NCBI GenBank assembly: GCA_963697895.1
Contig: OY969100.1
Coordinates: 1,056,001-1,120,000, forward strand
From: an uncultured Methanomicrobiales archaeon
GTDB lineage: Archaea > Halobacteriota > Methanomicrobia > Methanomicrobiales > Methanospirillaceae
Reading direction: 5' to 3'
DNA length: 64,000 nucleotides
Position 1 is the stretch's first letter. Every line of letters starts with the position of its first letter. Made by a program: the position numbers and the translations under genes. This document shows, in pieces, positions 12,221 to 29,465 of this stretch. The notes beneath the pieces were generated by a model. That model was not told where the DNA came from. It saw only the letters and a program-made list of their open reading frames with translations, and made no database searches.

Positions 12221-13348
12221 TCAGAGGACCTCCTTCAGTAACGGTACCTTTCGGAAGACAAAGTGTGTCATCGCATAGCAGAGGGGAACGCAGATGACAC
12301 AAAGAAGAAGCCACTTCGCGACCGGGTAGAACACGATAAACGGCGTGAACAACAGGGTGACGGGAACGATGATCGGGGGATGGAACATATAGACGGCAAA
12401 CGAGTTGTCCGACAATTTCTTGACCAACGTATTCTGGCGGTTTATTTTCTCCCGGAAGAGGGCTATCAGGGCGATGCTCATGGCAACCGCGACGAAGGAC
12501 TCCCATACGGAAAATCCGGCACTCTGCCAGGTCAGCCCTCCCATAAGGGCGGCGATATTTCCGCTGAGCGTGGCCGCAATGATCAACGCCAGCCATGCAA
12601 GGAAGCCCAGGACGATGCCGCCGATGAGCCAGCGCTTTCCCGTTCGATAGCTGATCCGTGCGAACAGGTTGTTCCTGTACGCGGCGATACCCACGATGAA
12701 AAGGGCAATGTACGAGGCGAAATAGCAGAGCTGCATATTCAGGATGCTCGTCCCGATCGGCTGTACGATCCGGATCAGGAAGGCAGAGACGGAGATGATC
12801 AGGATAAGGGCGACCGCCCGGGCAAATGTCGGCTCAAGCTGCGTCCCACCGGAAACGGGAACGCGCCTGCGGGCAGCCAGGCGCACCACCGCGTACACCA
12901 GCGAAAAGCCAAAGAGCGCCACCGCGAGCCACATCACCCCGGTGCCCGAGAGAAAACCGACGAGGTCAAACCCGGTATACGGATTCCCGAGTTCCACGTA
13001 CTCGATGAACGGCGTTATCGCCACCATATAGATCAGGGTCGGGATGATCAGGCGCCTGAACCGCCCCCCGACGAATAGGCCGAAGCCCTTCCGGTCGTAG
13101 CTCCCCGCGACAAAATAGCCGGAGACCATGAAGAGGAGCCCCAGGAAATATGCCTGTTGAAACGAGAGGTAAAATGCGAACCAGATGGTGGATGCTGTGG
13201 TCAGGTTACCTGCATCGATGTAGTACCAGCTGCCAAAGCCGCTGTACGTCACCGCCAGGTGGTGCATAACGACAAAGGTGATTACCAACAGCCGTATATT
13301 GTCAATATACAGCAGCCTTTCCTTTATATTGCCTGTCGGGTCAGCCAT
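12221..13348 (-). CDS. Acyltransferase_3 family (OpgC-like) membrane acyltransferase
   Basis: RLLYIDNIR...VVMHH, FMVSGYF, SFAVYMFH. Confidence 0.88.
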   Translation of the reverse strand: MADPTGNIKERLLYIDNIRLLVITFVVMHHLAVTYSGFGSWYYIDAGNLTTASTIWFAFYLSFQQAYFLGLLFMVSGYFVAGSYDRKGFGLFVGGRFRRLIIPTLIYMVAITPFIEYVELGNPYTGFDLVGFLSGTGVMWLAVALFGFSLVYAVVRLAARRRVPVSGGTQLEPTFARAVALILIISVSAFLIRIVQPIGTSILNMQLCYFASYIALFIVGIAAYRNNLFARISYRTGKRWLIGGIVLGFLAWLALIIAATLSGNIAALMGGLTWQSAGFSVWESFVAVAMSIALIALFREKINRQNTLVKKLSDNSFAVYMFHPPIIVPVTLLFTPFIVFYPVAKWLLLCVICVPLCYAMTHFVFRKVPLLKEVL

Positions 13349-13536
13349 CCATCAATGACCTTCATTTCCTCTCGTGAGTGTTCTCTTCTCATCCCCTTAT
13401 TATTGCCTATCCCGCATCCCGTTCTTCAGGCGGACATCTCAACCATACAAATATCTTTGAGGATTTTGCTTACCCCGTCGAGCGGGCTCGGGAAGATGAC
13501 CGGAAAGGAGGGACCGGGACCACAACCCGGTCGCAG

Positions 13537-13668
13537 ATGAGTTCCGAGGGATCAATTTCCCAGACCCTTTCACAAAAATGGGCGTCATTGAACGACTCCC
13601 CGGTCGTATACGAATACGAAGCCGATGAGAATGGAAATACCAGCGTAAAAGGCTGGTTGTTGAAATAA
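13537..13668 (+). CDS. Possible 43-aa small protein
   Basis: ATG-started ORF followed by T-tract at 13674-13680. Confidence 0.3.
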   Translation: MSSEGSISQTLSQKWASLNDSPVVYEYEADENGNTSVKGWLLK

Positions 13669-13803
13669 TCCCCTTTTTTTACTCCCGCGTCAATGAAACC
13701 ATCACCGCGAAGCCCCTTATATTCGAATGAATGTACTGCCTCCGGGGCAGTCTGACGAAAAGCCTGACTGAGGTTTCTCCCCGAATGATGGGAGACGAAC
13801 CCT

Positions 13804-16800
13804 TCACCCGGCCCCTTCCGCCCGGTTTCCTTCCCGCACCAGCCTCCCGTAACACTGCTCGCAGCACTTCGTCCTTTTTGTGGGATTCCGGTACACCGCC
13901 TCGTTCTCCCCGCAGATGTCACACCTCCCGACCGAAACGTTCAGTCGGTGGAAATCGCGGTGGTCCAGGATGCCGGGGATGGGGATTGTTCCGGATGAAC
14001 GGATAGTATTGTTATCAGGCGATCGCTCCTTCGCCCGGGAGTCTTCCGGGTGATCCGGTATGTCAGAGCGTGATCGCTCCTTCTCACGTGATCTTTTCAT
14101 ACGATCCGGTTTATCACTATGAGGTCGTGGTTTCTCCCGTGCTCTTTTTAGGCACTCATAACAGAGATACTGATCCGGAGGATCCCCTGGTGTTATCTTC
14201 AGCGAGGTCGTCGGTGACTTCCCGCAGACATGGCAGGGTACCGGGGACTCGAACGGGAGTGCGACATAGTCCTGTTCGCGGATCTGATCCCAAGATCCCA
14301 CAAGGGATCTGTTTGGGATCAGGTCTGGGATCTGCTGATTCTCGATATCTGTAATTATTTTTGCAATATCTCCATTTTGTGAGATATTATCGTCTGAAGA
14401 TCCCAGTTCTTCCGGATCGCACGCGGGCGGATTTTTCTGATCAAAATCGGAATTTTGGATCTGTGCCGAGAGGGAAGCTACTGCGCTTTCCTGATTATGG
14501 GATCTTGAGGGAGTACCTGTACTATTATTTAGAATATTATTATCCAAATTGAGTATTGTAGCATTTTCCATAGGTTTCGATCTGATCCCAGTCAAGATCC
14601 CAACCTGATCCCAACCTGATCCCATGGGATCTTCAGGATCGTTCATGTCCTGTACACCCTGATCCTGTTCATCAGGTACAAGCCAGACACCGTTACTCCG
14701 GTTCCAACTTTTGTACTGTTCATAGTTGAAGATGTAGTGATTTTCCCGCCTTCGTGTGATCGACTCCAGGCTCCCTTCGCTCGTGGTGGTCTCAATGTAC
14801 CCGAGTGCGGGACATTTCGCGAGAAGACCTCCCGGTACCCCATCCCGATCCGGTCTTCCATGAATGATTCGCCGAATCACGTTGTGCGACAGCCCCATCC
14901 ATGCCTGGGCGTCCCGGATCGTAAACTCGTTCTTCCCCATCGCGATCACCGAGTCGACGAGGAGCTGCTCGTTCTTGAGGAGCTTCGAGGTCTGGCCGCC
15001 GCTCGTCGTGTCGAGGGCGGTGAAGAGGTCGGCGGCGTTGGAGAAGTCCTCCTCCGTCGCGTCGATCTCGATGCTCCCGTCCGGGAGGGTCCGGGACGGG
15101 CGCTGCATGAACTTGAGGACGGCATGCGACCGGATGATGTCGAGGAGCATGATCGGGTTCCGGCGGTTCCGGATGCTGTCCATCCGGATCCGGTGGGCGA
15201 ACGGGACCCGGACGGTGAAGAGGTGCTCCCGGATGATCGCGAAGATCTCCCGGCAGACGGCCTGGTCATCCTCTTCCTCTTTTGTGCCGGCGGAGAGGCG
15301 GGCCCGGGCGAAGATGTGGTCCCGGACCCGGCGGTCCTGCTGCTCCGAGTCGTCGATCCAGGGGTTCATCATCCGGTTCAGCACCTGGTCGTCCCCGGGG
15401 TTGTCCACCGAGAGGATCCACCAGACGCAGCGGGGAGGGAGGGAGAGGACCACGGGCAGCCGGTTCGCGTTCAGGGTGAAGTGGGCGAGCGGCTGCTGGA
15501 ACCCGGAGGTCGCGTTTTTTAAGACTTCCCGGATGTCCTCGTTCATCGCGAAGTCGTCGAAGATGATCACGGTCCCCGGGTCGAGGGTGTGGTAGAAGAG
15601 CGCCTTCGGGGTGATCGATCCCTGCATCTTCGCGGGCTCCGGGAGGAGCCGGAGGAAGGCGTGGGCGGAGTCGCTCTTCCCTTTCCCGGAGTCCCCGGTG
15701 GGGCAGACGTGGAGCCCCCGCGAGTTCTGCACCGAGGAGGAGAGGGTGCTCGCGAGGTAGCAGGCCGCCACGATCCCGTCCCCGACATGGCACTTCGCAA
15801 AGGTCCCGAGGATGAACCGGCCCGGGTCCCCGTCCCGGAGGATCGCGAGTGCCCGTTCCCGCGATGGACCAGAATGTTTATTTTCTTTTACATCTACCAA
15901 CTGGTCAGGAGAGTATGCGGGTTGTTCCCGCACGGGAGTGGAGACGGTTCTTCCGTTTTGCTGAGCAGACGACCCCCCAATACCCTGCACGCGGGAAGAT
16001 TCCGATTCTTTTGCATAGTCCGAATCTCCTGCTCCCCGCTCTCCGGTAATGTATGCGATCTCCCCGGTCTCATTCCGGGGGGATTGCTCCTGATCTTCCG
16101 GATATGGTTCGGGCCGGAGGGTACTGTCCGGCTGATCCCGGGTATCCGGATCATTCCCCGGGAGCCGGTTGTCCATGCTCACAGGTGCTTCCGGATTATT
16201 TCCGAGGAGCTTGTGGTTGTTCCTGATCTCCGGTTGATCCCGGCTATACGGATCATTCCCGGGTGGTCTGCGGGTATCCATGCTCACGGGTGCTTCCGGA
16301 TTATCCCGGGAGAGCTGGTGTTCTTGATGATCCCGGCCATACGGATCATTCCCGGGTGATTGGCGGGTATCCATCCGTTCCGCGTACTCCTTCTCGTGCA
16401 TCATCCGGAGTTCCTGCCAGCGTTGCCTTCCGCCGCCGCAGCCCGCGTGTTTGCAGCCGGCATGGACCGCACCGTTCCCGAACTGGATCGCGAACGCCCC
16501 GTCCCGGTGGGCGCCGGAGAACGGGCACTCCTCGAGGATGAAGAGCCGGCCCCCGTTCCAGGGCTTCTCCGACCGGACCCGGATCCCGTGCTCCCGGAAC
16601 CACCCGGGGAGGTCGATCGGGACGAGCGGGTCATCGTAGACCTTCGTCTTATGAAGGGCTTGGTTTCGCGTCGAACTACTCGTCGACGAATTCCGATCGG
16701 CGTAACTCTCCCGGATTTGCCCGGAATATTTTGCAATTGACCCCGGAATTCCGCCGGCGGATGGCTGCTGCCGGATTTTTGGGATCACCGGAGACCCGTT

Positions 16801-17572
16801 CCGGGCAGATTCAGCCTCCGGCAGCAGTTGCGAGAGCGCTCCGAGTATTTCGCGTGGAACCACCGCGACGGGTTCCGGGACGGAGACCAGCCGCGATCTC
16901 CGGTAGGGACGGTCCGCGGTCCAGTCGCCTTTCCGGGAGACGGTCCCGTACAGCTTCCAGATCCGGCCGGCGTTGTACACCGCCGTGTCGATGGAGCAGC
17001 GCTCGTCGGAGAAGAGGGCCGAGAGGACGGCGAGCGCCTGCTGCACGAGCTGCCTGCTGTCGTCGTCGTTCGGCAGGTCGACCCGGTAGAGGAGATGTGC
17101 CCCATTCCCGGAGTCTCCCCTCACGGGTTCGGGGAATCCGTGCTCCCCGAGCCAGGCGGCGAGGTCCTCCGCCTTCTTCAGGGCGAGGGCATGCTCCTCT
17201 GCCGTGGACGAGACCCCGCTCGGCCGGACCGGGTCAATGTCGACCGGGAACCATCTCCGGCGAACGATGTCGCTGTCCGCCGTCGTAGCATCCTTCCGGC
17301 CGAGCCGCATCTTCACCCGGTTTGCCCGCCGGGCGAGGAGTGCCGGCGCCACCTCGTTCAGGGTGATGTACACCCCGTTCACCGTCGAGAAGTCGAGGCT
17401 GTTCCGCAGCAGAGGCGACGAGCTTCGGGTCGTCGAAGTACCCGCTGTGCGTGCCGTCCTCCGCGATCGCCCGGACCTCCACGACCCCGCCGGGAGCAGC
17501 AAGGAGCCGGACGGTCCGCTCGACCGCATCCTTCATCGTCGCCGCATCCGGGAGGGGAGCGGCGTCAGGCAT
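13804..17572 (-). CDS. Replication protein: AEP/RepB-like primase + Zn finger + P-loop ATPase/helicase + C-terminal Zn fingers (one extra base near 17401)
   Basis: VDID, DSGNGAH, NAGRIWKLYGT; CPF..H..CKH..C; Walker A GDSGKGKS, Walker B VIIFDD; CxxC..CxxC twice; N-terminus lies in the 17572 frame. Confidence 0.8.
14281..14640. repeat. Two clusters of (T/A)GATCCCA direct and inverted repeats flanking AT-rich DNA
   Basis: Direct at 14285, 14293, 14583, 14595, 14606, 14617; inverted at 14304 (7 of 8 nt), 14314, 14326, 14625. Confidence 0.8.
16120..16375 (-). repeat. Coding repeat in rep linker (MDTRxxPGNDPYxRD / NPEAPVS)
   Basis: GGATCATTCCC / GGATTAT cores at 16148, 16193, 16250, 16298, 16343. 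Confidence 0.8.
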
Positions 17573-18488
17573 GCCCGTTCACCTGCGAAGCGATCTGTGG
17601 CGAGGATTCAGATGGTGATGAGGGGAGAGGGGATCCGGTTGTTGCGGTACACGGATCTGATGCAACAGGAACAGGGGTACCGGATGGATCTGGCTGGGGA
17701 ACTGGTACTATAGTACTTGGTATTCCCGGAAGAGGATCCGGCTCGGGAGACTGTACTGTAGTACTTGTTATTCTCGAGAGGGGATCTGGTTGGGAAGTCC
17801 GACCTGGCATACCTGCTATTTCGGAGAGGGGATCTGCCCCGGGAGACTCTACTGTAGTATTTGTTATTCTCGAGAGGGGATCTGGTTGGGAAGTCCGACC
17901 TGGCATACCTGCTATTTCGGAGAGGGGATCTGCCCCGGGAGACTCTACTATAGTACCTGTTATTTTTAGGAATGGATCTGGCCGGGGAGCAAGTACTATA
18001 GTACCTGTTATTCTCGAACGAGGATCCGCTCCGATGGCTCCGGTTGGATCCGTAATCGCATTCGCTCCTCCATTCCTGCCCATTCCCCGTTCGACTGCCC
18101 TGGCCCGGTTCTCATCCCCGTACTCTTCGCCATCCGGATCGTACCCGGCATGCCGGACCCTCCTGATCCCGCCGGGGTACACCATATAGTACTTCCACCC
18201 GTCCGGTGGGGAGAGGACCCAGCATTCCTTCCGGATTACCTCCGGGTTCCCGATCGACCGGAGCCGGTCCAGCTCTTCCCCGTAGAGGATGGATACCGCA
18301 CGGGCACCCGGGACCGGCCGTCTCGACCGGCGGACCATGAGGAGGAGAAACTCCCCTTCCCGTGCGGCAAAGAGATCCGGCGGAGATCGTTCCCCGTAGC
18401 ACCGGGTGACGTACCAGCCCTGCTCCCGGAGGATATGGCATGCCTCGTACTCCGCATCGCACGCCTTCCGGTACCCTCCTTCCGTCAT
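17565..18488 (-). CDS. Hjc-like (Holliday junction resolvase fold) protein with repeat-derived C-terminus
   Basis: YRK...EYEA..IL...GW.V.R.....PDLFA resembles archaeal Hjc; the ExK position reads MVR. Confidence 0.65.
   Translation of the reverse strand: MTEGGYRKACDAEYEACHILREQGWYVTRCYGERSPPDLFAAREGEFLLLMVRRSRRPVPGARAVSILYGEELDRLRSIGNPEVIRKECWVLSPPDGWKYYMVYPGGIRRVRHAGYDPDGEEYGDENRARAVERGMGRNGGANAITDPTGAIGADPRSRITGTIVLAPRPDPFLKITGTIVESPGADPLSEIAGMPGRTSQPDPLSRITNTTVESPGADPLSEIAGMPGRTSQPDPLSRITSTTVQSPEPDPLPGIPSTIVPVPQPDPSGTPVPVASDPCTATTGSPLPSSPSESSPQIASQVNGHA
17686..18030. repeat. 48-bp-period repeat with 96-bp higher-order duplication
   Basis: GGATC at 17686, 17734, 17782, 17830, 17878, 17926, 17974, 18022. 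Confidence 0.92.
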
Positions 18489-18964
18489 GGTTCCACCATC
18501 TGGGAATGGAGCAGGAGGTTCCGGGTACCGGATCCACGATTCGGTTTCAGCAGCATGGGGAGAAGATTCCCGTTACCGGATCCATGAGCGGACCGAATCA
18601 ATAGAAGCAGGGGATTCCCGGCACGGGATCCATGGATCCGCATCGATGACGGGAGAACGTTCTCGATATCGGATCCATGGATCGGTGGCATGAGGTTCCT
18701 GCTGCCGGATCCATGACCTGGTCGCATCAGTGGCGGCAAAAGATTTCCGTTACCGGATCCCTGGACCTGGCTTACCGGCGGCAAAATACTATCCTCATCA
18801 TTCCGTCGTATCCATCTATCCTGCCGATCCTCCTCTGCGGGATCGGTATTGGCAAATTCAGCTCTTCTTAAAATACATACGGAGCCGGCATCCTGGTACG
18901 ATTCGACCAGCCCCGTCATCTGTTCCTGTTCCTGTTCCAGTTCTGTATACAACATGGCAATCAC
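18485..18964 (-). CDS. Hypothetical protein with ~16-aa repeats (HGSGxxNLLP)
   Basis: ATGA overlap with the Hjc-like gene; GGATCC at 18530, 18578, 18626, 18671, 18707, 18755. Confidence 0.45.
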   Translation of the reverse strand: MIAMLYTELEQEQEQMTGLVESYQDAGSVCILRRAEFANTDPAEEDRQDRWIRRNDEDSILPPVSQVQGSGNGNLLPPLMRPGHGSGSRNLMPPIHGSDIENVLPSSMRIHGSRAGNPLLLLIRSAHGSGNGNLLPMLLKPNRGSGTRNLLLHSQMVEP

Positions 18965-19371: not shown

Positions 19372-19592
19372 AGGAATCTCCGGATCATTGCTGTGCCTGT
19401 AGTGTTGCTTTTTCAGAGAATAATGATTGTGGTTACTTTGGGGATTGGGGGAAACTGCGGGGGGTATGCGGGATTTGAGAGGAGGGGTGGGGGCGGTACG
19501 GGGGGGGAGTGCGGGGAGAGGGAGGGGGATTGGGAAAGTGGATTTTGAGAGAGGAGAATTTTTTTAAGATGATAGGCGTGAGGTTTTTCTAT

Positions 19593-20537
19593 TCAATAAC
19601 CAGAAACCCCGGTCATTTCTCTTTCGGTAAGGTAATATTCTCTTTTCCATTCATTGAGCAAATTGCCGATCAACCCTTCATACCTGAGAAGAAATTCTAT
19701 AAACGAAACTCGAATTTTAAGGTATTCTTCCATTGCGTCATGTAATGATGTACCGATTAATTTGGCACGTAATTCCAACTTGTTTTTAGTAAAGAACAAA
19801 TATTGCGGATATTTTTCGTTAATAGTGGCATCAGCAAGCGTATAGACAAATAAATCCTCATAATCTGTTTCATTTAAAAGAGCCTGCCCACCATTTAGAT
19901 AAATACAAAGATTTCGAAAATCAGGGCCTACTAATAAAATTTTTGATAAATTTTCATTGAATAACTTTTCAATTCGCTCTGCATATGTATCATATTCATC
20001 GCTTAATTGATTGATTTTCTCTAAATATTTCATTAAAACTTCATCCGGATAATGAACTTGTTTGTCCAAATATCTCTTCGGTGAGAACCAAACGGGGAAT
20101 TTTTTTTCCTCCGTATAATTATTATTTAATATCAACCTAGTGAAGATATTTCCATTTTTAAGGACAGATTTTGTTTCTTCTAAGTCTTTTTTTAATGGAA
20201 TGAAAACATTCTGCGCGATATCTTTGATAATTTTACTTTTCCGATCTTTTTCAGCATAAATCAATTGTTTTTGAGAAATATCTACGAGATTTTGGTTAGC
20301 GATTGCGTATGCCAATGTTATAAAAACCAGTAATAATGTTGCGCCCGCCTGAATCCAGATTGCAGCAGATTGAATATCAGATAATATAAATTCCAAAACA
20401 ATCACGATCGCCGTAGCGATACATAATACAATAAAACTCCATGTGAACATATTTTTTTTCAAAATTAGAATCAATAGACATATCGATAGAAGTGAAATAT
20501 AGATAATCAAAATCAGAATATCAATTATTTCAATCAT
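19593..20537 (-). CDS. AT-rich hypothetical protein with three N-terminal TM helices
   Basis: 314-aa ORF, hydrophobic N-terminus, helical remainder. Confidence 0.75.
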   Translation of the reverse strand: MIEIIDILILIIYISLLSICLLILILKKNMFTWSFIVLCIATAIVIVLEFILSDIQSAAIWIQAGATLLLVFITLAYAIANQNLVDISQKQLIYAEKDRKSKIIKDIAQNVFIPLKKDLEETKSVLKNGNIFTRLILNNNYTEEKKFPVWFSPKRYLDKQVHYPDEVLMKYLEKINQLSDEYDTYAERIEKLFNENLSKILLVGPDFRNLCIYLNGGQALLNETDYEDLFVYTLADATINEKYPQYLFFTKNKLELRAKLIGTSLHDAMEEYLKIRVSFIEFLLRYEGLIGNLLNEWKREYYLTEREMTGVSGY

Positions 20538-20723
20538 TGTTACTTAATAAAAATTGTTTGGATATAAATTATCTTGGATTATCCCAATGATCGGCCGCTT
20601 TTTGATCTTATTTCTATGTGATGATGTGCCGGCAGAATTTATACGTCCCAGCCAACAATTTCATCTCAGGAAAACGATATGAAATTTAATAAATGCATAG
20701 GATGAACCTCCTAGAAGTGCGTT

Positions 20724-21099
20724 ATGGAATTAACTGAAAATGAGAGACTAATGTTAATTGGCAAAAAAAAGATGAAATCAAAAACATAACCGATGAGATA
20801 TTAGAATTAGATCTATATAATGAAGGAAATGGGGTCGAAATCGCCAAAAGATTGAATCACATATTGGGCCTACTAAGCACGATAGCAAGTTATTCAAAGC
20901 CAAAAGAAATTTAAGTATATTTACTCGATTAGCCGCACACATATCTTTGAGTGGGAAAATTATAAGATATGCGCCTATGAGTAGCGAAATTGAAATTCTT
21001 TGTTTGGCTGCAAATTCTGTTCAATTTGAATTCACAAAGAGAGGGTTAATTCTTAAATTACCCAATACATGTCTTTCCGACTCGGATAGATATTCATAG
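20724..21099 (+). pseudogene. Broken AT-rich ORF (~125 aa if two A-run indels are corrected)
   Basis: MELTENERLMLIGKK / DEIKNITDEILEL...YSKP / RNLSIFTRLAAH...; frames join at A homopolymers. Confidence 0.35.
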
Positions 21100-21575
21100 A
21101 TACAGTTGCGGTTTGGGTTCGGGTGCAATGGTGATTAATTTTCCTCACGTTCAATGATTTATCTACGAATAAATGACATTTCGCACACATGCCGGAGGGT
21201 TGATCTTCTCAATGGTTTGGTAACATGCATTAAATGCAATTGAACAATGGATAATTGTTCATTTCACGAATCTTTGTTATCTTTTATTTCTTTAAAGAAA
21301 TTTATTGATAATGAAATACTATCTGGATACAGTGAGTAAGTCCTTCCCGAAAAGGATGATGCCACCCTAAGGAGGATGGACGAAGTAGGGAAGGGTTCAC
21401 AACGATCTTCTCTTTATAGAATTTAATTATTTTTTCTATTTGGGATAAGTTAAATATTAATGCATGAAAATGCTCATATCCTCACAGAAATAAGTGCAAC
21501 TTTATTTCCCGAAAGAATGAAAGCAAGTATCTGCTCAATAACACGACTAAAATTCATGGAAAACAGAAAACCATC

Positions 21576-22310
21576 ATGAGAGATACATTCACCCCGACGG
21601 TTACTGATGTCAGAAAAGGTATGTTGACAGTCGATCAGATCTTCAATATCGTTATAGAACAACTTGAAAAGTCAGGGGAACTTGAACCTGAATATTTAAG
21701 AACTCATTTTGGGGATGTTTTGAAGAAAATTGAAAATAATGCACATGTATTATATCTTCAAGCAGAATCGGGAGTTACAGAAGATTTAATTGACAGGATT
21801 GCAGAGGAATTACCTCCATATGCTGGGAAAAAGGAAATAATCAGGCAGTCTGTTTCAAGAGCCGTTGAATTCGAGTACAGGACAGGACAGTCCCGGAAAA
21901 GCAGGGGAGGTTCTACTTACCAGAAAGCCGTTTCATTTTTGTTATCCCGTTTGGGAATTCCTCATATAAAACCCGCCGGAAAGGAAAAGAAGGAATTCGA
22001 TGAAATTGATTTTATTATCCCATCTGCTGAATATGCCAGAAAAATGCCCGATGATACAATTTTGTTGAGCGTGAAAAGGACCGGACGTGAGCGATGGAAA
22101 CAGGTTGTAAGCGAACGTGCTATGACTCATGTTTTTTTAATTCTCCATGACACGGATGATTTATCATCGGATAAGATTGAACTGATCAAAAAGAATAAAA
22201 TTATCCTGTATGTTTATGATGAAATTAAAAGAAAGGAAATGTTCAGAAATGAGGATAGCGTACGGAGCCTGAATGATCTCCCAGACCGTCTCAAACGATA
22301 CCAGAAATAA
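21576..22310 (+). CDS. Type II restriction endonuclease, EcoRII-C/CCGG-family
   Basis: QSRKSRGG, IDFIIPS, SVKRTGRERWKQV motifs; next to vsr and dcm. Confidence 0.85.
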   Translation: MRDTFTPTVTDVRKGMLTVDQIFNIVIEQLEKSGELEPEYLRTHFGDVLKKIENNAHVLYLQAESGVTEDLIDRIAEELPPYAGKKEIIRQSVSRAVEFEYRTGQSRKSRGGSTYQKAVSFLLSRLGIPHIKPAGKEKKEFDEIDFIIPSAEYARKMPDDTILLSVKRTGRERWKQVVSERAMTHVFLILHDTDDLSSDKIELIKKNKIILYVYDEIKRKEMFRNEDSVRSLNDLPDRLKRYQK

Positions 22311-22361
22311 CCATCTCCGGCCGGTGTGTTGACTATTATTTGAATTTCTAAACGAAGCGAT

Positions 22362-22778
22362 ATGGTTGACGTTCTCACCCCTCAACAGAGAAGTTATAAT
22401 ATGTCCCGCATAAAGGGCAAAGATACTTTACCCGAAATACAATTAAGACGACTCCTGCGGGAAGCAGGAATCAGGGGTTACCGTATTCATTACGATCTTC
22501 CAGGCAAGCCGGATGTGGTATTTATCAAGAAAAAAATTGCGATTTTCATTGATGGTTGTTTCTGGCATAAATGCCCCTTGCATTTTAAAGAACCCGAGAC
22601 CCGGAAAGAATTCTGGTTGAAAAAAATCCAAGAGAATGTCAAGCGTGATGAAATAATTAATAAAACACTGGTTGAGGATGGCTGGAAGTTAATCCGGATA
22701 TGGGAACATGAACTTAAAGAAAATCCGGAAGAAATCATTCGCCGGATAAAAATGGTTTTAGGATACACAGGTCCCTAG
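22362..22778 (+). CDS. vsr: Very short patch repair endonuclease
   Basis: RSYNMSRIKGKDT.PE, LPGKPD, FIDGCFWH, IWEHE. Confidence 0.95.
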   Translation: MVDVLTPQQRSYNMSRIKGKDTLPEIQLRRLLREAGIRGYRIHYDLPGKPDVVFIKKKIAIFIDGCFWHKCPLHFKEPETRKEFWLKKIQENVKRDEIINKTLVEDGWKLIRIWEHELKENPEEIIRRIKMVLGYTGP

Positions 22779-23771
22779 TTGTTTTTCTTTTAGAGTTGAT
22801 AATTTTTCTGAATCAAGCGATTTTATGAGTTCATTTGCAATAATTTCCATAAGCGGAACCGCTACAGAATTTCCAAACTGTTTGTAAGCCTGCGTATCCG
22901 AGACCGGAATTTTAAAACTGTCAGGGTAGCCTTGGAGCCTGGCACACTCCCTAGGGGTCAGTCGTCTTGGATTTTTTCCCTCCTGCGGAATCAGGATTTC
23001 ACTTCCATCTTTGTAATAACGTGCCGAAAGGGTCCGGCAGTAACTGTTAAAGTCCACCAGCCCATAACCAAATCCATTTCCTTTCTTGCGGTGTTTTTCG
23101 GCATAATCCTGTAAATACTGCCAGAGATGATCGGTCAATGTATATTTGGCAGGAATATCTTTCTCAAGAATATCCTGAAAAACAGGGTTCAAATTTTGGA
23201 TTTCAGGAAATTTAAATGGCACTTCTTCTTCTCTGAATCCAATCATTATAATGCGTTCCCGATTCTGGGGGACCAACCTGTTTGCATTGAATACTTTGTA
23301 ATGAAATGAATATCCTTCAGCAATAAGTGAATCCCTGATTACTTTGAATGTTTTGCCTTTGTCATGACTTTCTAGATTTTTTACATTTTCAAGGAAATAT
23401 GCAGCAGGCCTTTTTAACCGGATTATTCTCATTATTTCATAAAACAGCGTCCCCTTTGTCTGATGTGCGAAACCATGAGGTATATTCAGACTCAGATATT
23501 TTGATACTCCTGCGATAGAGAACGGCTGACAGGGGAATCCGGCAACCAGAATGTCGAAATCCGGAATATCTCTGGCTTGTATCTCCCGTATATCACCTAT
23601 AGGAGATTCACCAAAATTAGCTTCATATGTTTTTTGTGCATATTTATCGATCTCGCATGAGAAAACACATTCCGCACCCGCTCTTTCGAATGCAAGACGA
23701 AGACCGCCTATACCGGCAAATAGATCAATAAATTTCAGTTTTTCCTTCAAAATGGGAACACTTCCCGACAT
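22758..23771 (-). CDS. dcm: DNA (cytosine-5) methyltransferase, Dcm/EcoRII-like (probably CCWGG)
   Basis: FAGIGG, GFPCQPFS, ENV, QNRER, KGNGFGYGL, RTLSARYYKDGSEIL, QFGNSV. Confidence 0.93.
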   Translation of the reverse strand: MSGSVPILKEKLKFIDLFAGIGGLRLAFERAGAECVFSCEIDKYAQKTYEANFGESPIGDIREIQARDIPDFDILVAGFPCQPFSIAGVSKYLSLNIPHGFAHQTKGTLFYEIMRIIRLKRPAAYFLENVKNLESHDKGKTFKVIRDSLIAEGYSFHYKVFNANRLVPQNRERIIMIGFREEEVPFKFPEIQNLNPVFQDILEKDIPAKYTLTDHLWQYLQDYAEKHRKKGNGFGYGLVDFNSYCRTLSARYYKDGSEILIPQEGKNPRRLTPRECARLQGYPDSFKIPVSDTQAYKQFGNSVAVPLMEIIANELIKSLDSEKLSTLKEKQLGTCVS

Positions 23772-24054
23772 CTGTCAACCCGGTATCTGTTTGAAGTTCA
23801 ACATTCCAAGATTAAATAATTGTGATATGCACCGTGAATGTGAATCATATTTCTCTTTACGTTTTAAATATGGAGCCAATCTGCCAAGTCGTTTTTCTAT
23901 TCGAATAAAGACATGTGTGTAGAAATTGAGGCTAAAAATCATTTGGTTTGCTTTGAGATTGGAAATGTTCGCGCGAAATAAATCATTGATGGAATAATTA
24001 GCAAACTGTTTAATCATCCCTATAAATTCTTCTGAATTCTCGTGGATAAATATG

Positions 24055-25020
24055 TTATAAATTATTTAGAGTGTCTTGGTTCATTTCTGAGAATTCTGAC
24101 ATTGGAATTTTAACTACACAACTGCTCCCTCCTTGCATATTTCGCCCTCCACCACTAAACACCCATGAGGCATATTGAGCGAGCTTTTCGAAAGTTATGA
24201 ACCACCAATTTACTAAATTTCGATCTTCCGTATTATTTATCTCTCTAACAATGAATAATGAGTGCAAATTACCCTTCTTTGCAGCGTAAAAAGACAACTT
24301 AACAAATGGACCCACATCCAAACCAAAATAATTACCTAACTTACTATCCCTTGCGGGTGTTTTTTCTTTAATTTCAATTGGATAAGTATACCTTTCTCCC
24401 CAAAAAATGGCATCTATATCAACTGATTCTGTCATAAGTTTATTTTGTAGCGATATTCTAATGTGTTCATTTGTAAATAGACCCGGTATTGAAAGTTCAG
24501 GAATTGATGAAATGTCAGTTTGAAAACCAAGAAAATTATATCGACGAGTGCGTGCTTTAAAATCCGATAACACTTCTGGAAAATCATGGTAACTGTCAGA
24601 AAACGGTACGCCCAATTGTGTTGCATGCCATTTTAAAGAATTAATTTCGTTCTGAACCCCAATGGATGGGGCACAATAATAGCTATGAATTCCAAGTTGG
24701 TGCATTGTTGCACAAATTGTATGCAACCCTCGTGGCGGTTCTTCAAATTGTCTATCAGGTGAATAGGATATTTCAGGTTGAATTAAACATGGAAATACAA
24801 CCACAGTTTTATGACCAAAATTTCGTTCACCAGTATTTCGAGATATCCACCCCCCAGAAGAGATACGATTTCCAAATCCCATTTCATTGAGTGTATTTCG
24901 TAAATCGATTTCTGCTAAAAGACCGTTCAATTTGTTCTGATTAAAACTAGAAATGCTTTGGAAAGATAATCCTTCATTAAATCTATAGAAATAGATGCCA
25001 TAAGGCTTCTCTACTCTCAA
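24055..25020 (-). CDS. Putative PD-(D/E)xK nuclease of unknown family
   Basis: DIDAIF...IEIKEK motif in a 321-aa AT-rich ORF. Confidence 0.6.
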   Translation of the reverse strand: MRVEKPYGIYFYRFNEGLSFQSISSFNQNKLNGLLAEIDLRNTLNEMGFGNRISSGGWISRNTGERNFGHKTVVVFPCLIQPEISYSPDRQFEEPPRGLHTICATMHQLGIHSYYCAPSIGVQNEINSLKWHATQLGVPFSDSYHDFPEVLSDFKARTRRYNFLGFQTDISSIPELSIPGLFTNEHIRISLQNKLMTESVDIDAIFWGERYTYPIEIKEKTPARDSKLGNYFGLDVGPFVKLSFYAAKKGNLHSLFIVREINNTEDRNLVNWWFITFEKLAQYASWVFSGGGRNMQGGSSCVVKIPMSEFSEMNQDTLNNL

Positions 25021-25089
25021 TTTTAAATATTTTTTTCATCTCAATCAATGATTTCTATTTTCATTTTAGATTATATTGTCTTTCTCAAT

Positions 25090-25317
25090 ACCTTCAGACC
25101 AAGGAAAATCATGTCGCTCCGCGAGAGAACGAAAGTACTGAGAGGATTTGACGGTGCAGAGGGTGTGGAAGTGTTCTGCGACGGGATGAGAACATATTAC
25201 AACTACATCCGGCCACATCAGGGGATTGGAAGATTGACTCCTGCGCAGATAGCAAATATTCCAATTAACTTGATGGGATCCAAGTGGGAGAAAATAATTG
25301 GGTTGGCGGGTGGATAA
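25090..25317 (+). mobile_element. Transposase C-terminal remnant (IS6/rve-like)
   Basis: RERTKVLRGF...YYNYIRPHQGI..LTPAQ; N-terminal DDE part missing. Confidence 0.7.
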
Positions 25318-25712
25318 AACCCAATTATTACCCGTACATCCTATCAGGGGGGAAATGAAATTTCTTGGACTAGTTTCTCCCCATTTATTTTGCCTGCAAG
25401 ACTGTGAGAAACAAATGAAATGCCCAATGCCCCGACGTTGATTACTGATTTAATTGCTTCATCTAATTCCTTCAAGAAATATTATCTTTTTTGAAGGAAT
25501 ACCCTTGAAAACCAGCGTGGTGCGAAGCTATGGCATGTCATTTATCGTCTTCTTTTGTATTTTCGAAATAAAAACCAAAAAACCGTACCAACAATGGCCG
25601 CTATTAATTCAAATTTAAAAAAATTTATTGTTACAAGGACCATTACCCAAAAAATCAATTTCAAAGCCATGAATAAATTAATTAGAACTTGTATCAGATC
25701 CATTAGACTCTC

Positions 25713-25943
25713 TTAATCGACATTTTTTATATCAAAAAATTTTGGATCGAAACTTCGTTTAAATTCCGGATCTTCTTTTTTCATATAATCAATTACTTGT
25801 TTAACTCCGTCGTCCCTAGTTAACCTAGGTTCAGCATCATTCCTAAGACTGTACTTTCTTGCACTGAAATAGTGTTGTCTGAACATATTTCGTTTAGATC
25901 CCCGAGTACTCCTATGTAATGTATTCCAATTCCTTTTCCACAA
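25713..25943 (-). pseudogene. Probable gene fragment
   Basis: 76-aa ORF with protein-like C-terminus and a doubtful start. Confidence 0.3.
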
Positions 25944-26132
25944 ACTCTCCTATTTCTTTATCATTCATGAAACACATGTACTGCTCTTTCTTTATTAAAG
26001 TCAACTGATACTTCACCAACCGTTCATGTGGTTAAGCATCCTTCATCTAACCGGAACCTGGAAAGAGTCATCGATAAAATAGAGAAAATTATTAAGATGG
26101 ATATTATAATTTATGGTTATTGAAGGGGACTT

Positions 26133-27260
26133 ATGAGCCAAGAAAATAATGAGCATAGATTAAGGGCATTTGTCTTAATGCCATTTGATACAGAATTTGA
26201 TGCGATTTTTGATAAGCTTATAACACCCACATTAGAAGAAGTTGGCTATGATGTCAAGCGCGCTGATAGTATTCTTAATCAACAAAACATTCTAAAAGAT
26301 ATATTACGGGGTATTGCAGAGGCGGATTTGGTTGTTGCAGATCTAACTAGTCTAAATGCCAATGTTTTTTATGAACTAGGAATCGCACATACTCTACTAA
26401 GACCAACGGTTCTTTTAGCTCAGTCCAATAAAGATGTACCCTTCGATCTATCGTCATACCGCGTGATTCTATATTCCACTCATTTTGTTGAAGCCCCTCA
26501 ACTGTCAAAAAAACTTAAGGAGATTGGTGAGAAGGCAAAAAACAATAAACTTGGATTTGGGAATCCTGTATCTGATTTTCTTCCAAGAGAAATGGAATCG
26601 GAATTTTCTCGTTTAACGACAGACGCGAGAGATGAAATAGAAACAAAAAATGAAAAAAAAATTGAAAACGATGAAGAAGAAAAGGGAATTTGGGACTTTG
26701 TTGTAGATGGCGAGAAATCCATGAAGGACATCACCGAACATTCAAGGCGAATAACAGAGGCAACAGAAGAAGTTGGTTCAAATATGCAAAAGCGAACTGC
26801 AGAGTTGCAGAAAATTTCACAAACTGGTTCGCCTGGCACAGCCTCTCGGATTCATGAGATTGCTACCGCATCATCATTGGATATTATCAAGTACGCAAAA
26901 CAACTCGAAGATGAACAACCCAATTTTCATAGTGCTTGGGAATCGTTCGACCATAACATTTCTGGTCTTCTTCAAACCACTCGAATAGAATCGCAAGAGG
27001 ATAAGAAGATAGCACTTGATTTTCGAATGTCGGTAGAGCAGCTACGGGTAGGAATAATATATGCTTTAAACGGAGTGAAAGGATTACGAGAAAGTGTTGC
27101 AAATATGAAAGATATTAGTCGAGAAATAAATCGTGCTTCAAAAAGGACAGCTCATATCCTCGATTTGTTGATTTCCGATCTTGAAGGAGCCGATTCGTAT
27201 TGTACAAAAGTTTTAACCTTACTTGATGAAAAGATCGCAAAATATTCATTCCCGTTTTAG
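26133..27260 (+). CDS. Nucleoside 2-deoxyribosyltransferase-like domain fused to long helical domain
   Basis: FVLMPF...RAD...ADLVVADLTSLNANVFYELGIAH...PFDL, then coiled-coil-like C-terminus. Confidence 0.8.
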   Translation: MSQENNEHRLRAFVLMPFDTEFDAIFDKLITPTLEEVGYDVKRADSILNQQNILKDILRGIAEADLVVADLTSLNANVFYELGIAHTLLRPTVLLAQSNKDVPFDLSSYRVILYSTHFVEAPQLSKKLKEIGEKAKNNKLGFGNPVSDFLPREMESEFSRLTTDARDEIETKNEKKIENDEEEKGIWDFVVDGEKSMKDITEHSRRITEATEEVGSNMQKRTAELQKISQTGSPGTASRIHEIATASSLDIIKYAKQLEDEQPNFHSAWESFDHNISGLLQTTRIESQEDKKIALDFRMSVEQLRVGIIYALNGVKGLRESVANMKDISREINRASKRTAHILDLLISDLEGADSYCTKVLTLLDEKIAKYSFPF

Positions 27261-27360
27261 AGATCCGTAGAAAAATAGATTCAAAATTTAACGACTAGCA
27301 TTTCATAACAGTAATGTTAGAATGCTGCGAACGGATCCGAACCCCACACCTCCCCCCGTC

Positions 27361-27512
27361 CAATTCAACCCTCGTGAAGCCATGCAATCCCCCCCTAAAC
27401 CTCTCCCCTCAACCACCAGAACGCCTCCTCGAGAATCCTTTGCATCCTTCACAATGCCGGCACCGTAGGGCGATGATCAGCTTGTCGAAGTCCCACGAGA
27501 GCAGTCGTTCGA
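27361..27512 (-). pseudogene. Diverged copy of DUF4336 gene 3' end and downstream flank
   Basis: Direct repeat of 28725-28876 (ERLLSWDFDKLIIA...) with indels. Confidence 0.88.
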
Positions 27513-27526
27513 CCTCAGGCTCTCTT

Positions 27527-27973
27527 TCAGGGTAGCTTCGGTACTGTTTCAATCCTCTCGATAAATTGTTCCGTTATTGAAAGCCATCCCTCAATTTCCT
27601 CCCCTGATGCCGGTGTTTCAAATGAATACTGGTTCTGCTCCCGCATGCTCCTGATCCTTCCGAACAGGGTTACCCATCTGCTTTCCAGATTTCCGGAGGC
27701 TGCGTAGGTTCCCAGGTAAAGCTCTATACAATAGTGAGTTCGCTTCTCCCGGATCCCGTCATGAAAGAGGACCGCCCGGGCAGCATGAAACCACGCCATG
27801 TACACCCCGTTTGTTGCCAGCCGCGGCGTTCCGATCTGCATCCCCTGCCGGGCTTCCGAAAGGTACTCTCTTGCCATGGCAAGCGACATCCTCGCTTTCT
27901 CATTGGAAGGGGGAACCGTCTGCAGCTTTCCCTCCGCAAAACAATCATCGAGTGTTGTCAAAATCCTCACCAC
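27527..27973 (-). CDS. HEPN domain protein (toxin partner)
   Basis: YMAWFHAARAVL...G...THY, RxxxxY (REQNQY); overlaps MNT stop. Confidence 0.88.
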   Translation of the reverse strand: MVRILTTLDDCFAEGKLQTVPPSNEKARMSLAMAREYLSEARQGMQIGTPRLATNGVYMAWFHAARAVLFHDGIREKRTHYCIELYLGTYAASGNLESRWVTLFGRIRSMREQNQYSFETPASGEEIEGWLSITEQFIERIETVPKLP

Positions 27974-28508
27974 ATACGGTCAGATGGTTATTTTTTAAAT
28001 TCGCATAAAATGAGGCGTCCTGAATTTTAAGGTTCTCCAGTTTGTTTTTAGTCAGCAGTAACGCGTGAACATCGCTTCCGGTTGCGGCCCCCAGATCCCG
28101 TTGGAGTTCTCCCATTTTCAATTCAAGGTCAGGATCATAGTCTTTTATGAATACCCAGACATCAAGATCGCTCTCCAGGTTATTTTTTCCTTCTGCCCAT
28201 GAACCATAAATCCCGATCCCTTCCGCCCAGGACGGGAGAGCGATACTATTCCGGAGGAGATCGAGGTTGAGAATCAATTTTATTGCATCCCACAGTGCAG
28301 TATCATTTCGATAAATCGAACGGTTATCGCGATTCAGAAGACGTTCGTGGATGAGCAGATTGAGATATTGAGAAACAAGCCCCTTTGACACCTGGGTGCC
28401 TGTTGTTACCGATGTAACGGAGAACGTTTCTCTTATACTGATGTAACGGAGAATTTTGACCCGTTCCCTGGTTTTAAACAGATCTACCAGGAACTCCTCT
28501 GTGCTCAC
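27945..28508 (-). CDS. wHTH + minimal nucleotidyltransferase (MNT antitoxin)
   Basis: N-terminal HTH (SKGLVSQYL), GIYGSWAEG...SDLDVWV; GTG start at 28508 preferred over 28541. Confidence 0.88.
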   Translation of the reverse strand: MSTEEFLVDLFKTRERVKILRYISIRETFSVTSVTTGTQVSKGLVSQYLNLLIHERLLNRDNRSIYRNDTALWDAIKLILNLDLLRNSIALPSWAEGIGIYGSWAEGKNNLESDLDVWVFIKDYDPDLELKMGELQRDLGAATGSDVHALLLTKNKLENLKIQDASFYANLKNNHLTVCGEDFDNTR

Positions 28509-28521
28509 AGTAATACGATTA

Positions 28522-28584
28522 TGTTCATAATATATGAACATATTGTTCGTGTTTTATGAACAATATGTTCATCATTCATGAACT
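28522..28584. promoter_or_regulatory. Three tandem palindromic operators TGTTCRT-N5-ATGAAC(A/T), 22-bp period
   Basis: Copies at 28522, 28544 and 28566, directly upstream of the MNT gene. Confidence 0.8.
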
Positions 28585-28757
28585 ATTTCCCACGAAATCC
28601 TGTAGATACTGCGGAACCGGGTAATACCAAGTCGATCATTGAATTGGCGCACCCTGTCGCCAGGAGAGGCAAGAGGGGCTGAACACGATACAAATTCCCT
28701 GTACCGGATATCCAATGCCCCACCCAATTCAACCCTCGTGAGGTACGCCACCGCTCC

Positions 28758-29465
28758 CTAAACCTCTCTCTTCAACCACCAGAACGCATCCTCGACAAAA
28801 TCCTTCGCATCCTTCTCTACGCAGGGGCCGTGAGCGATGATCAGCTTGTCGAAGTCCCACGAGAGCAGCCGTTCGAGGGATCGCCGGGCGAGCCTCCGGT
28901 TCGTAAAAGTAAACCTGATATCGAGCGGAACGCCGCCACGCGGAGCAGCAACACCCCCGATCCTGGACAGGGCATTGCGGAGGAATTTCCCCTTCACGAC
29001 CGGGTGAACCTGGATGAGATCGTCCAGGATGACCGTGCGTGACGCTTTGTGAAAGAACAGGACCTCTTCGATGAGCCGGTTGCCCGTGAAGGCGATCTGG
29101 TCGAAGTCGTCCGCCCAGCCGGGATCCGGCTCGTCCCCGAGGACGCCGGTGATGGGCAGGTCCCCTTTCTTCAATGTCATCAGGGTGGTCCGGGGCACCC
29201 AGAGCCCGGCGTCGGGGAAGAGCGTGTGCCACCCGTCCAGCCGCCAGACATGCCGCGGGGTCGCAGCTAACAGGTACCTTACCGGACCCAGTTCGGTGAT
29301 GCTCCTGATCGTGTCGGGCGGCACCGCCACCGGGGAATCCACCCAGATCGAACCGCCGGAGAGCTGCACGACGGTCATGCGGGTGCTGAACCAGACCCCG
29401 AAGTCGCGGACGGGCGGCCCGTCGACGATCCATACGTTTTTGGCGAATGGCTGGAGGCCGTACAT
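28758..29465 (-). CDS. DUF4336-like protein (metallo-beta-lactamase-like fold)
   Basis: TRMTVVQL..G..WVDSP, EVLFFHKASRTVILDDL, WDFDKLIIAHG. Confidence 0.85.
   Translation of the reverse strand: MYGLQPFAKNVWIVDGPPVRDFGVWFSTRMTVVQLSGGSIWVDSPVAVPPDTIRSITELGPVRYLLAATPRHVWRLDGWHTLFPDAGLWVPRTTLMTLKKGDLPITGVLGDEPDPGWADDFDQIAFTGNRLIEEVLFFHKASRTVILDDLIQVHPVVKGKFLRNALSRIGGVAAPRGGVPLDIRFTFTNRRLARRSLERLLSWDFDKLIIAHGPCVEKDAKDFVEDAFWWLKREV

Follow-up and report, generated by a model that had tools for sequence, protein, structure and literature searches.

The DNA analyzed here, referred to as the window, is a stretch of 64,000 nucleotides (nt) from an uncultured Methanomicrobiales archaeon (GenBank assembly GCA_963697895.1, contig OY969100.1, positions 1,056,001 to 1,120,000 of the forward strand). 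Three minus-strand open reading frames (ORFs) lie head to tail in it at 18485-18964 (159 aa), 17565-18488 (307 aa), and 13804-17529 (1241 aa), and their protein products are designated P0003, P0002, and P0001, respectively. This three-gene operon most probably serves an integrative, plasmid-like element of Methanomicrobiales as its replication module, with the copy in the window being a defective remnant. The large protein would serve as a replication initiator in one polypeptide, consisting of an archaeo-eukaryotic primase (AEP) domain, a zinc (Zn) module, a variable linker, an MCM-like AAA+ ATPase, a winged helix (WH), and one or two Zn ribbons. In the proposed mechanism, the winged helix and the Zn ribbons would recognize the origin of the element, the AAA+ module would form a ring that melts and unwinds the DNA, and the tethered AEP domain would make the first primer. 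The small upstream genes would be co-translated and would provide accessory DNA-binding factors, namely one to four Hjc-like proteins, a second type of small protein, or both. Motif positions given below are numbered along P0001 as called, and the coordinates of all features are collected in Table 1.

Motifs and Sequence Family of the Large Protein

An original prediction, made from the letters of this DNA, listed a set of motifs for the large protein, and every one of them was located in P0001. These are the AEP motifs DID at 97, SGNGAH at 140, and NAGRIWKLYGT at 186, the Zn finger CPFSGAH at 335 with CKHAGC at 359, the Walker A (GDSGKGKS, 612) and Walker B (IIFDD, 655) motifs of the ATPase, and two C-terminal four-cysteine (C4) fingers, CHVCG at 1099 with CYEC at 1123 and CDICG at 1203 with CEQC at 1223. 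The repetitive linker of the same prediction is also present, with repeats of about 100 nt at 16133-16374. A family search with P0001 returned 268 matches at E ≤ 1e-3 (best E = 0), so these features lie far beyond chance. Among 45 aligned members of the family, the acidic and histidine residues of the AEP domain, the cysteines and histidines of the Zn module, the Walker motifs, and the cysteines of the last Zn ribbon are invariant or nearly so. A protein database assigns the family to PF27228 (Pfam 38.1), with the name MTBMA_p00010_2nd. Searches of PDB sequences with P0001 alone or with a 45-member profile gave P-loop noise only, and a Pfam scan of the 45 members gave only weak matches to AAA_22, AAA_16, and helix-turn-helix (HTH) families.

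The Primase-Polymerase Domain and the Zinc Modules

The N-terminal region was modeled from the family alignment as residues 1-401 of the closest intact homolog, P0005, a protein of 1228 aa that is 84% identical to the window protein, and the model reached a predicted local distance difference test score (pLDDT) of 87.8. Its best structural match is the PrimPol of cyanophage S-2L (6zp9_A) with a Z score of 17.1 and a root-mean-square deviation (rmsd) of 2.5 over 174 aligned residues, followed by Prim-PolC (6sa0_A, Z 13.6), RepB' of RSF1010 (3h20, Z 13.6), and archaeal PriS (Z 13.2). All high-probability Foldseek matches of the same model are AEP enzymes, and a joint match to the AEP and Zn modules comes from viral primase-helicases (E 3e-28). 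The modeled N-terminal domain has the AEP fold, as had been predicted for it.

Motifs I to III of the window copy read FPVDIDP (D97 and D99), SGNGAH (H145), and SIDTAV, an assignment made by pattern and not by superposed coordinates. The corresponding D111, D113, H159, and D195 in P0005 numbering are invariant or nearly so both in the 45 and in a larger set of 94 sequences. The signature of the PrimPol-PV1 type is present as well, with H145 of motif II and R189 followed by isoleucine in NAGRIWKLYGT, and the equivalent R203 (P0005 numbering) is nearly invariant. A primase/polymerase role is predicted from this fold and these motifs.

The Zn-binding module that follows the primase is modeled with high confidence. 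The stretch between it and the AAA+ module consists solely of a low-complexity linker, and the shorter relatives have a much shorter one. The two C-terminal Zn ribbons differ in their distribution, with the first found in many but not all relatives (Table 1).

The MCM-Like ATPase and the Winged Helix

Residues 550-965 of P0001 were modeled from the family alignment with a pLDDT of 92.2, and this central model was compared with 48,161 chains. The best 11 of these chains are all MCM proteins (Z 17.2-21.3, 241-285 aligned residues, rmsd 3.0-3.8), and the Foldseek E value is 2.9e-8. Below them stand RavA (Z 16.7), BchI (Z 15.9), and BrxL (Z 14.2), with ComM also among the followers. As modeled, the helicase module is therefore an MCM-like AAA+ ATPase and not the superfamily 3 (SF3) helicase of pRN1 ORF904. 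The pRN1-like primase-helicase of the original prediction thus stands in part: the large protein is a primase-helicase fusion, but its helicase is MCM-like (Z 21), and no match to PF09250 or to SF3 was found on it. The gene is not the host MCM either, as a genome-wide search with PF00493 recovered the canonical host MCM at C1:357274-357945 and missed the replication gene.

The same ATPase and winged helix recur in pMTB1, a plasmid of 4.9 kb from an uncultured archaeon, whose putative Rep shares this region at 22% identity (pairwise E 3e-13). This supports a role in replication initiation. Searches of phage and plasmid collections matched only two records in each.

The Reading Frame of the Large Gene

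The three overlapping minus-strand genes are arranged as had been described, with a 4-nt overlap (ATGA) between the P0003 and P0002 genes and with the stop of P0002 overlapping an ATG at 17572 (ATGCCTGA). The claim that the third gene encodes a single product of about 1255 aa failed. The span from 17572 to 13804 is 3769 nt, which is not divisible by three and cannot be one frame, and the longest ORF in it is 1241 aa. The frame from the ATG at 17572 agrees with the N-terminus of P0005 over 57 codons, then diverges and reaches a stop after 112 codons. The 45-member family profile divides in the same way: its positions 1-53 match a separate frame (17237-17578, E 1.4e-14), and its positions 46-978 match the main ORF.

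The base at 17400 is absent from the contigs of relatives in all four metagenome runs that bridge the site, which come from three studies. The depth in support of the shorter version is 52.6 of 52.6 in run X1, 34 of 34 in X2, and 6.8 of 6.8 in X12, and in X4 one contig supports it with 3.96 of 21.6. The window copy of the replication gene carries a +1 frameshift at codon 58, so that the primase fold loses its first strands and helix. Since the extra base shifts the frame at 17400, P0001 as called starts with about 43 junk residues. Programmed frameshifting was considered and is ruled out, as the relatives encode the protein in a single frame.

The Upstream Genes

The Hjc-like nature claimed for the partner gene was upheld by its family. 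P0002 alone scores 16 bits against Pfam Hjc, which is below the gathering cut-off of 21.1. With a profile of 11 P0002 homologs, the top four PDB matches are all Hjc, namely 1gef of Pyrococcus furiosus at E 1.8e-4 and 1hh1, 4tkk, and 4tkd at E of about 2e-3. The likeness to Hjc (1gef, 1hh1) covers the N-terminal 55 residues with a conserved Glu and the PD motif, and the C-terminal 'GW..y.v.P' is also similar. The glutamate and lysine of the E-x-K motif belong to the catalytic site of Hjc. The profile aligns 'IEVK' of 1gef with 'MVR', in which M51 is nearly invariant and R53 invariant in the 11 sequences. Because MVR replaces IEVK, the canonical acidic/Lys pair of the PD-(D/E)xK site is missing in the P0002 family. 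On these grounds P0002 more likely acts as a DNA-binding accessory than as a resolvase, and it would bind branched or origin DNA rather than resolve junctions. The P0002 family further differs from Hjc in the long repetitive tail of P0002 and in the occurrence of the Hjc-like genes in tandem, with up to four copies in relatives of the window element. A complex prediction of the Hjc-like domain against the AEP-Zn and ATPase-WH parts scored 0.00, which is no evidence either way.

P0003 found no homolog in the family-library searches, and neither P0003 nor the tail of P0002 has homologs among the ORFs of 87 related loci. Tandem 48-nt units occur inside the P0002 tail (17684-18049, about seven units) and inside P0003 (18511-18767, about five), many of them with GGATCC, and they read as 16-aa protein repeats. 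Lying directly upstream of the replication gene, they could double as iteron-like DNA, although nothing in the analysis pointed to such a function.

Distribution, Domain Exchange, and Neighbors of the Family

An exhaustive search at E ≤ 1e-3 yielded 9298 representative clusters with a match to one or the other domain. Reference genomes contain at least 565 confirmed loci, the nearest of which are in metagenome-assembled genomes (MAGs) of Methanolinea and Methanoregula. Among Methanomicrobiales, the family is matched in 66 of 121 genomes and 24 of 31 genera, with several loci in many genomes; the source genome has one copy and no paralogs. This patchy and multi-copy distribution, together with the MCM that the host has of its own, argues for a gene of a mobile element and against the single-copy housekeeping protein that had been considered as the counter-reading.

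The domains of the large protein also occur in other combinations. Among 35 proteins subjected to Pfam scans, in which the carriers of the N-domain are at about 45-74% identity, the N-domain is joined to D5_N/DUF5906 (six), DUF3987 (four), AAA_25 (one), or RQC with or without HEAT (six). The rest showed no family (16) or a weak DUF match (one), or is P0249, in which the ATPase is joined to the Prim-Pol PF09250 that replaces the N-domain. Judged from these sequences, the N-domain and the ATPase travel separately, and the N-domain is that of a phage/plasmid primase clade with free exchange of helicase partners. The fusions of the AEP N-domain to RQC and HEAT that lack a helicase are L022, P0158, P0160, P0165, P0174, and P0188. 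The first of these (NC_019972.1, 251853-254372) lies on the 285-kb plasmid of Methanomethylovorans hollandica and is annotated merely as a 'HEAT repeat domain-containing protein'.

The upstream partner varies. Among 49 full-length loci with at least 2.5 kb of upstream sequence, 16 have only the Hjc-like gene, 19 have only a 'type 2' gene for a small protein unrelated to the Hjc-like one, eight have both, and six have neither. Two alternative partner families occupy the upstream position, and the Hjc-like one is there in 24 of the 49. In two loci (L016:7881-9491 and L026:1131-2316), three or four tandem Hjc-like paralogs lie between the type 2 gene and the replication gene.

Integrase homologs are present in 21 of the 87 related loci, mostly 1-9 kb upstream of the replication gene and on its strand. 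No att sites were seen in four integrase-bearing relative loci. Two loci of the Methanoregulaceae type (L040:2573-3746 and L062:5510-6931) have 9-11 tandem 102-nt repeats between the integrase and the replication gene. Seven related loci of 20 kb were annotated, and two of them have tyrosine integrases. Their cargo varies from locus to locus and includes PglZ with an SNF2 helicase and a methylase; BrxL; GmrSD, Dam, SIR2, and Eco29kI; a DUF1156 methylase with NERD; ResIII-PLD; HicB with a nucleotidyltransferase; and many small ORFs without a known family. Defence genes stand beside the replication gene in five of the seven (L013, L015, L016, L017, and L018).

The Window Copy and Its Surroundings

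The original prediction that no integrase or capsid gene is visible beside the operon agrees with profile searches of the window, which found neither. Profiles of the integrases and of the type 2 protein against the six-frame translation of the window gave nothing at E ≤ 10, and a genome-wide search with PF00589 found one recombinase, at C1:31974-32432, far from the window. As intact relatives carry integrases, the missing integrase marks the window copy and not the family. No att-like repeat was found flanking the operon in the window. The flanking host genes, for an acyltransferase and DUF4336, are themselves rare in the family, occurring in two and one of 25 other genomes, respectively, and for this reason no empty site was found.

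About 600 bp upstream of the operon, at about 19560, the GC content falls sharply from 52-62% (2-kb windows, 12-20 kb) to 34-42%. The defence cargo predicted to adjoin the operon is found in the AT-rich block that starts there, as an EcoRII-C-like restriction endonuclease (REase), Vsr, Dcm, a TIR-like protein, and a HEPN/MNT pair. The integrase of the relatives lies on the side of this block, and the element in the window thus looks truncated or overwritten. Record 1 of run X1, an 8172-nt contig from a peat metagenome, carries an intact homolog whose left flank is that of the window (13300-13997, with 26 differences over 698 nt), which indicates that the element holds the same site in a related population. 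The frameshift, the missing integrase, and the abrupt change to an AT-rich defence island upstream lead us to regard the window copy as probably a decaying, defective remnant.

Further observations concern the AT-rich block itself. A G-run-rich stretch at 19430-19550 precedes its abrupt start. The HEPN/MNT pair is bracketed by a direct repeat of about 160 bp (27354-27512 and 28718-28876, 85-98% identity, spacing 1364), which may have been left by the insertion of a small cassette or by an att duplication. The right copy of this repeat overlies the 3' end of the DUF4336 gene (28758-29465), which looks truncated, with 235 aa that cover profile positions 15-162 of 321; the open frame of a relative has 324 aa.

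Table 1. Coordinates in the window of the operon, its domains, and the neighboring genes.
Feature	Position	Strand	Remarks
Replication gene, longest ORF (P0001, 1241 aa as called)	13804..17529	-	Residues ~45-1241 are true protein; 1-43 out of frame
Second C-terminal C4 Zn ribbon, CDICG...CEQC	13825..13947	-	Four Cys invariant in 45/45 aligned members
First C-terminal C4 Zn ribbon, CHVCG...CYEC	14140..14247	-	In many, not all, relatives
Winged-helix DNA-binding domain (predicted), model residues 296-396	14680..14979	-	MarR/TFE-type matches, Z ~8; weak MarR_2/HTH matches in members
MCM-like AAA+ ATPase (modeled), P0001 ~550-849	14980..15864	-	Walker A 612, Walker B 655; conserved NRM...WIDD and NRRNP
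Low-complexity repetitive linker, ~100-nt units	15865..16374	-	Much shorter in most relatives
Zn-binding module after the primase	16375..16617	-	C335, H341, C359, H361, C364, invariant or nearly so; modeled with high confidence
AEP primase-polymerase catalytic domain (predicted), P0001 ~45-245	16795..17397	-	Motif I DID 97-99; motif II H145; motif IV-like Arg in GRIWKLYGT
Frameshift site, one base extra relative to every bridging relative contig	17398..17402	-	One base left out at 17400 in X1, X2, X4, X12
True N-terminal 57 codons, in the other frame	17401..17572	-	ATG 17572-17570; first strands and helix of the AEP fold, from the secondary structure of the model
P0002, repetitive Pro/Asp-rich tail	17565..18143	-	~7 copies of 48-nt units; last residues (..GHA) recur in homologs
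P0002, Hjc-like N-terminal domain (PD-(D/E)xK fold)	18144..18488	-	E-x-K position reads M51-V-R53
P0003, first ORF of the operon, 159 aa	18485..18964	-	GTG start; 48-nt repeat units; putative coding ORF
AT-rich (34-42% GC) foreign block with defence genes	19560..28720	.	Candidate neighbor; membership in one element with the operon putative
EcoRII-C-like REase	21576-22310		
Vsr	22362-22778		
Dcm methylase	22758-23771		
rve_3 integrase-core fragment, 89 aa	25048-25317		
TIR-like protein	26133-27260		PADLOC TIR effector, E 4e-12; phrog_3634, E 1.5e-31
HEPN/MNT pair	27527-28541		

Relation to Known Systems

Islands of this kind have been noted before. In Makarova et al. 2014 (Extremophiles, PMC4158269), 'yet uncharacterized putative elements' are described that encode arCOG07809, with Mpal_2033 of Methanosphaerula palustris as an example. 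That protein combines a primase, an ATPase/helicase, an HTH, and a Zn finger in small Methanomicrobiales islands, is linked to arCOG09441, a PD-DExK nuclease of the Holliday junction resolvase (HJR) family, and is accompanied by integrases and att sites in some copies; the islands were proposed to be integrated satellite viruses. The ATPase is called a 'Superfamily I helicase' in the text and an 'AAA DnaA-like ATPase' in Table 2 of that paper. The window shares with this description the host order, the four-part architecture, and the adjoining PD-(D/E)xK HJR-like gene, and differs from it in the MCM-like ATPase (Z 21), the frameshift, and the absence of an integrase; we take it as an arCOG07809/arCOG09441-type island. 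The original prediction had spoken of a distinct and poorly described replicon family; a mobile and uncharacterized family it is, but one already noted in print in 2014 and hence not undescribed. Literature searches found no paper on the family in Methanomicrobiales beyond that of 2014, with supplementary tables outside the searches. Relative to the published descriptions consulted here, the MCM-like fold, the altered motif and the arrays of the Hjc-like partner, and the second partner family are differences or additions.

Exchange of helicase partners is reported for the PrimPol-PV1 supergroup in Kazlauskas et al. 2018 (PMC5862659), where relatives of Anabaena all3500 are fused to RepA-type (AAA_25), DUF3987, and D5-type helicases, only one archaeal all3500 member is listed, and MCM fusions are reported for the PrimQH family. 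By that description, the window protein resembles the all3500 type in the order of primase, PriCT or Zn domain, helicase, and winged helix, in the motif II histidine and the Arg-hydrophobic motif IV, and in the fusion repertoire of its N-domain relatives. In contrast, the closest solved structure to the window N-domain is S-2L PrimPol, followed by RepB'.

BcMCM, a primase-MCM fusion from a Bacillus cereus prophage described in PMC3273815, likewise unites an AEP-type primase and an MCM-type AAA+ module in one polypeptide of an integrated element. It differs in its bacterial host and is recognizable as MCM by sequence, whereas PF00493 misses the ATPase of the window. Three things set the window family apart from BcMCM as described there: an additional Zn module, the Zn ribbons, and the Hjc-like partner. 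ORF904 of pRN1 (prim-pol, SF3 helicase, and winged HTH) follows the same logic of primase, helicase, and winged HTH in a single protein of an archaeal plasmid, but its AEP family is another one and its helicase is SF3 instead of MCM-like AAA+. It is an analog and not a relative.

Alternative Explanations

Several results weigh against reading the operon as the replication module of an integrative element that is defective in the window. P0001 has no matches in NCBIfam, PADLOC, or a copy of Pfam-A without PF27228, no match to PF00493 (MCM), and a single weak one in PHROGs (E 0.013), to an unnamed family. The primase, helicase, and origin-binding roles of all members are predictions made on folds and motifs. 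In the window, neither an origin nor att sites nor the limits of the element were located, and the assignment to the arCOG07809/arCOG09441 type was matched by the published description, not by the sequence of Mpal_2033. The catalytic motifs 3' of the frameshift are all intact. The source genome, a single contig of 2.09 Mb, is 93.85% complete, compared with 97-99% for the other single-contig genomes of the Methanomicrobiales survey, and this lower completeness may reflect leftover indel errors, in which case the frameshift would be an error of the assembly.

The last points lead to a reading in which the gene is intact in the living organism, the base at 17400 was introduced by error in the assembly or consensus, and the element may still replicate and be mobilized by a recombinase encoded elsewhere. 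Apart from the completeness figure, it is favored by the preservation of all motifs after the shift, by the open frame in every bridging relative contig, and by record 1 of X1, where the same gene beside the same left flank suggests a locus that is stably kept. The shift site (GAACAGCCTC), however, is not a homopolymer, the window has no integrase, and the genome has one tyrosine recombinase. None of the sequencing runs searched contains the genome of the assembly itself (best word share 0.21), and no RNA run was among those listed. We regard an intact gene as possible, though distinctly less probable than a remnant.

A replication module might also belong to a satellite of archaeal viruses, a proposal raised in PMC4158269, which would replicate upon induction by a helper virus in the manner of phage-inducible chromosomal islands (PICIs) or Staphylococcus aureus pathogenicity islands (SaPIs) and carry its defence genes as cargo. 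The elements are small and have integrases, no capsid genes were recognized in the seven annotated loci, and defence cargo stands beside the replication gene in most of these. SaPI replication proteins are among the structural matches of the central model, yet weakly (8tch, Z 9.2; 7ola, Z 8.5), far below the likeness to MCM. No helper virus, packaging signal, small terminase, or capsid-remodeling gene was identified, and most neighboring ORFs in the annotated loci are without a family assignment, so that we consider satellites an unlikely reading. Far less probable still is a primase-MCM-like protein that works in host defence or repair and not as the initiator of a replicon. The recurrence of defence genes beside the gene and the match to BrxL would fit such a role, as would the Prim-Pol domains of CRISPR-associated CAPP proteins, one of which (7nqe) matches the N-terminal model at Z 11.9. 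Against this, the defence genes change with each locus, and what recurs is the replication gene, its small partners, and the integrase where one is found. Moreover, the ATPase and winged helix are the Rep module of a 4.9-kb plasmid, the N-domain is common to phage primase-helicases, and PADLOC has no match for P0002 or P0003 either.

Significance of the Family

The replication module described here belongs to a very large family that is known from sequence and predicted folds. The present analysis adds to it the MCM-like helicase, the assignment of the primase to a helicase-swapping clade, the tandem Hjc-like partner with its altered motif, and the changing defence neighbors. A bolder and improbable extension would make these elements integrase-borne satellites, the archaeal counterparts of phage-inducible chromosomal islands, in which the AEP-Zn-MCM-like initiator fires upon infection by a helper, arrays of altered Hjc-like proteins remodel or mark a branched-DNA origin, and the islands are the main vehicles of defence systems between methanogens. 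If this were true, an intact replication operon would be a ready-made replicon for genetic tools in Methanomicrobiales, where such tools are scarce. The window copy itself, as a probably dead remnant, is of limited interest. If taken from a cultured strain of Methanoculleus, Methanofollis, or Methanolinea, an intact member could provide the first vector replicon for Methanomicrobiales, and as a compact model system it could show how priming and unwinding are coupled.

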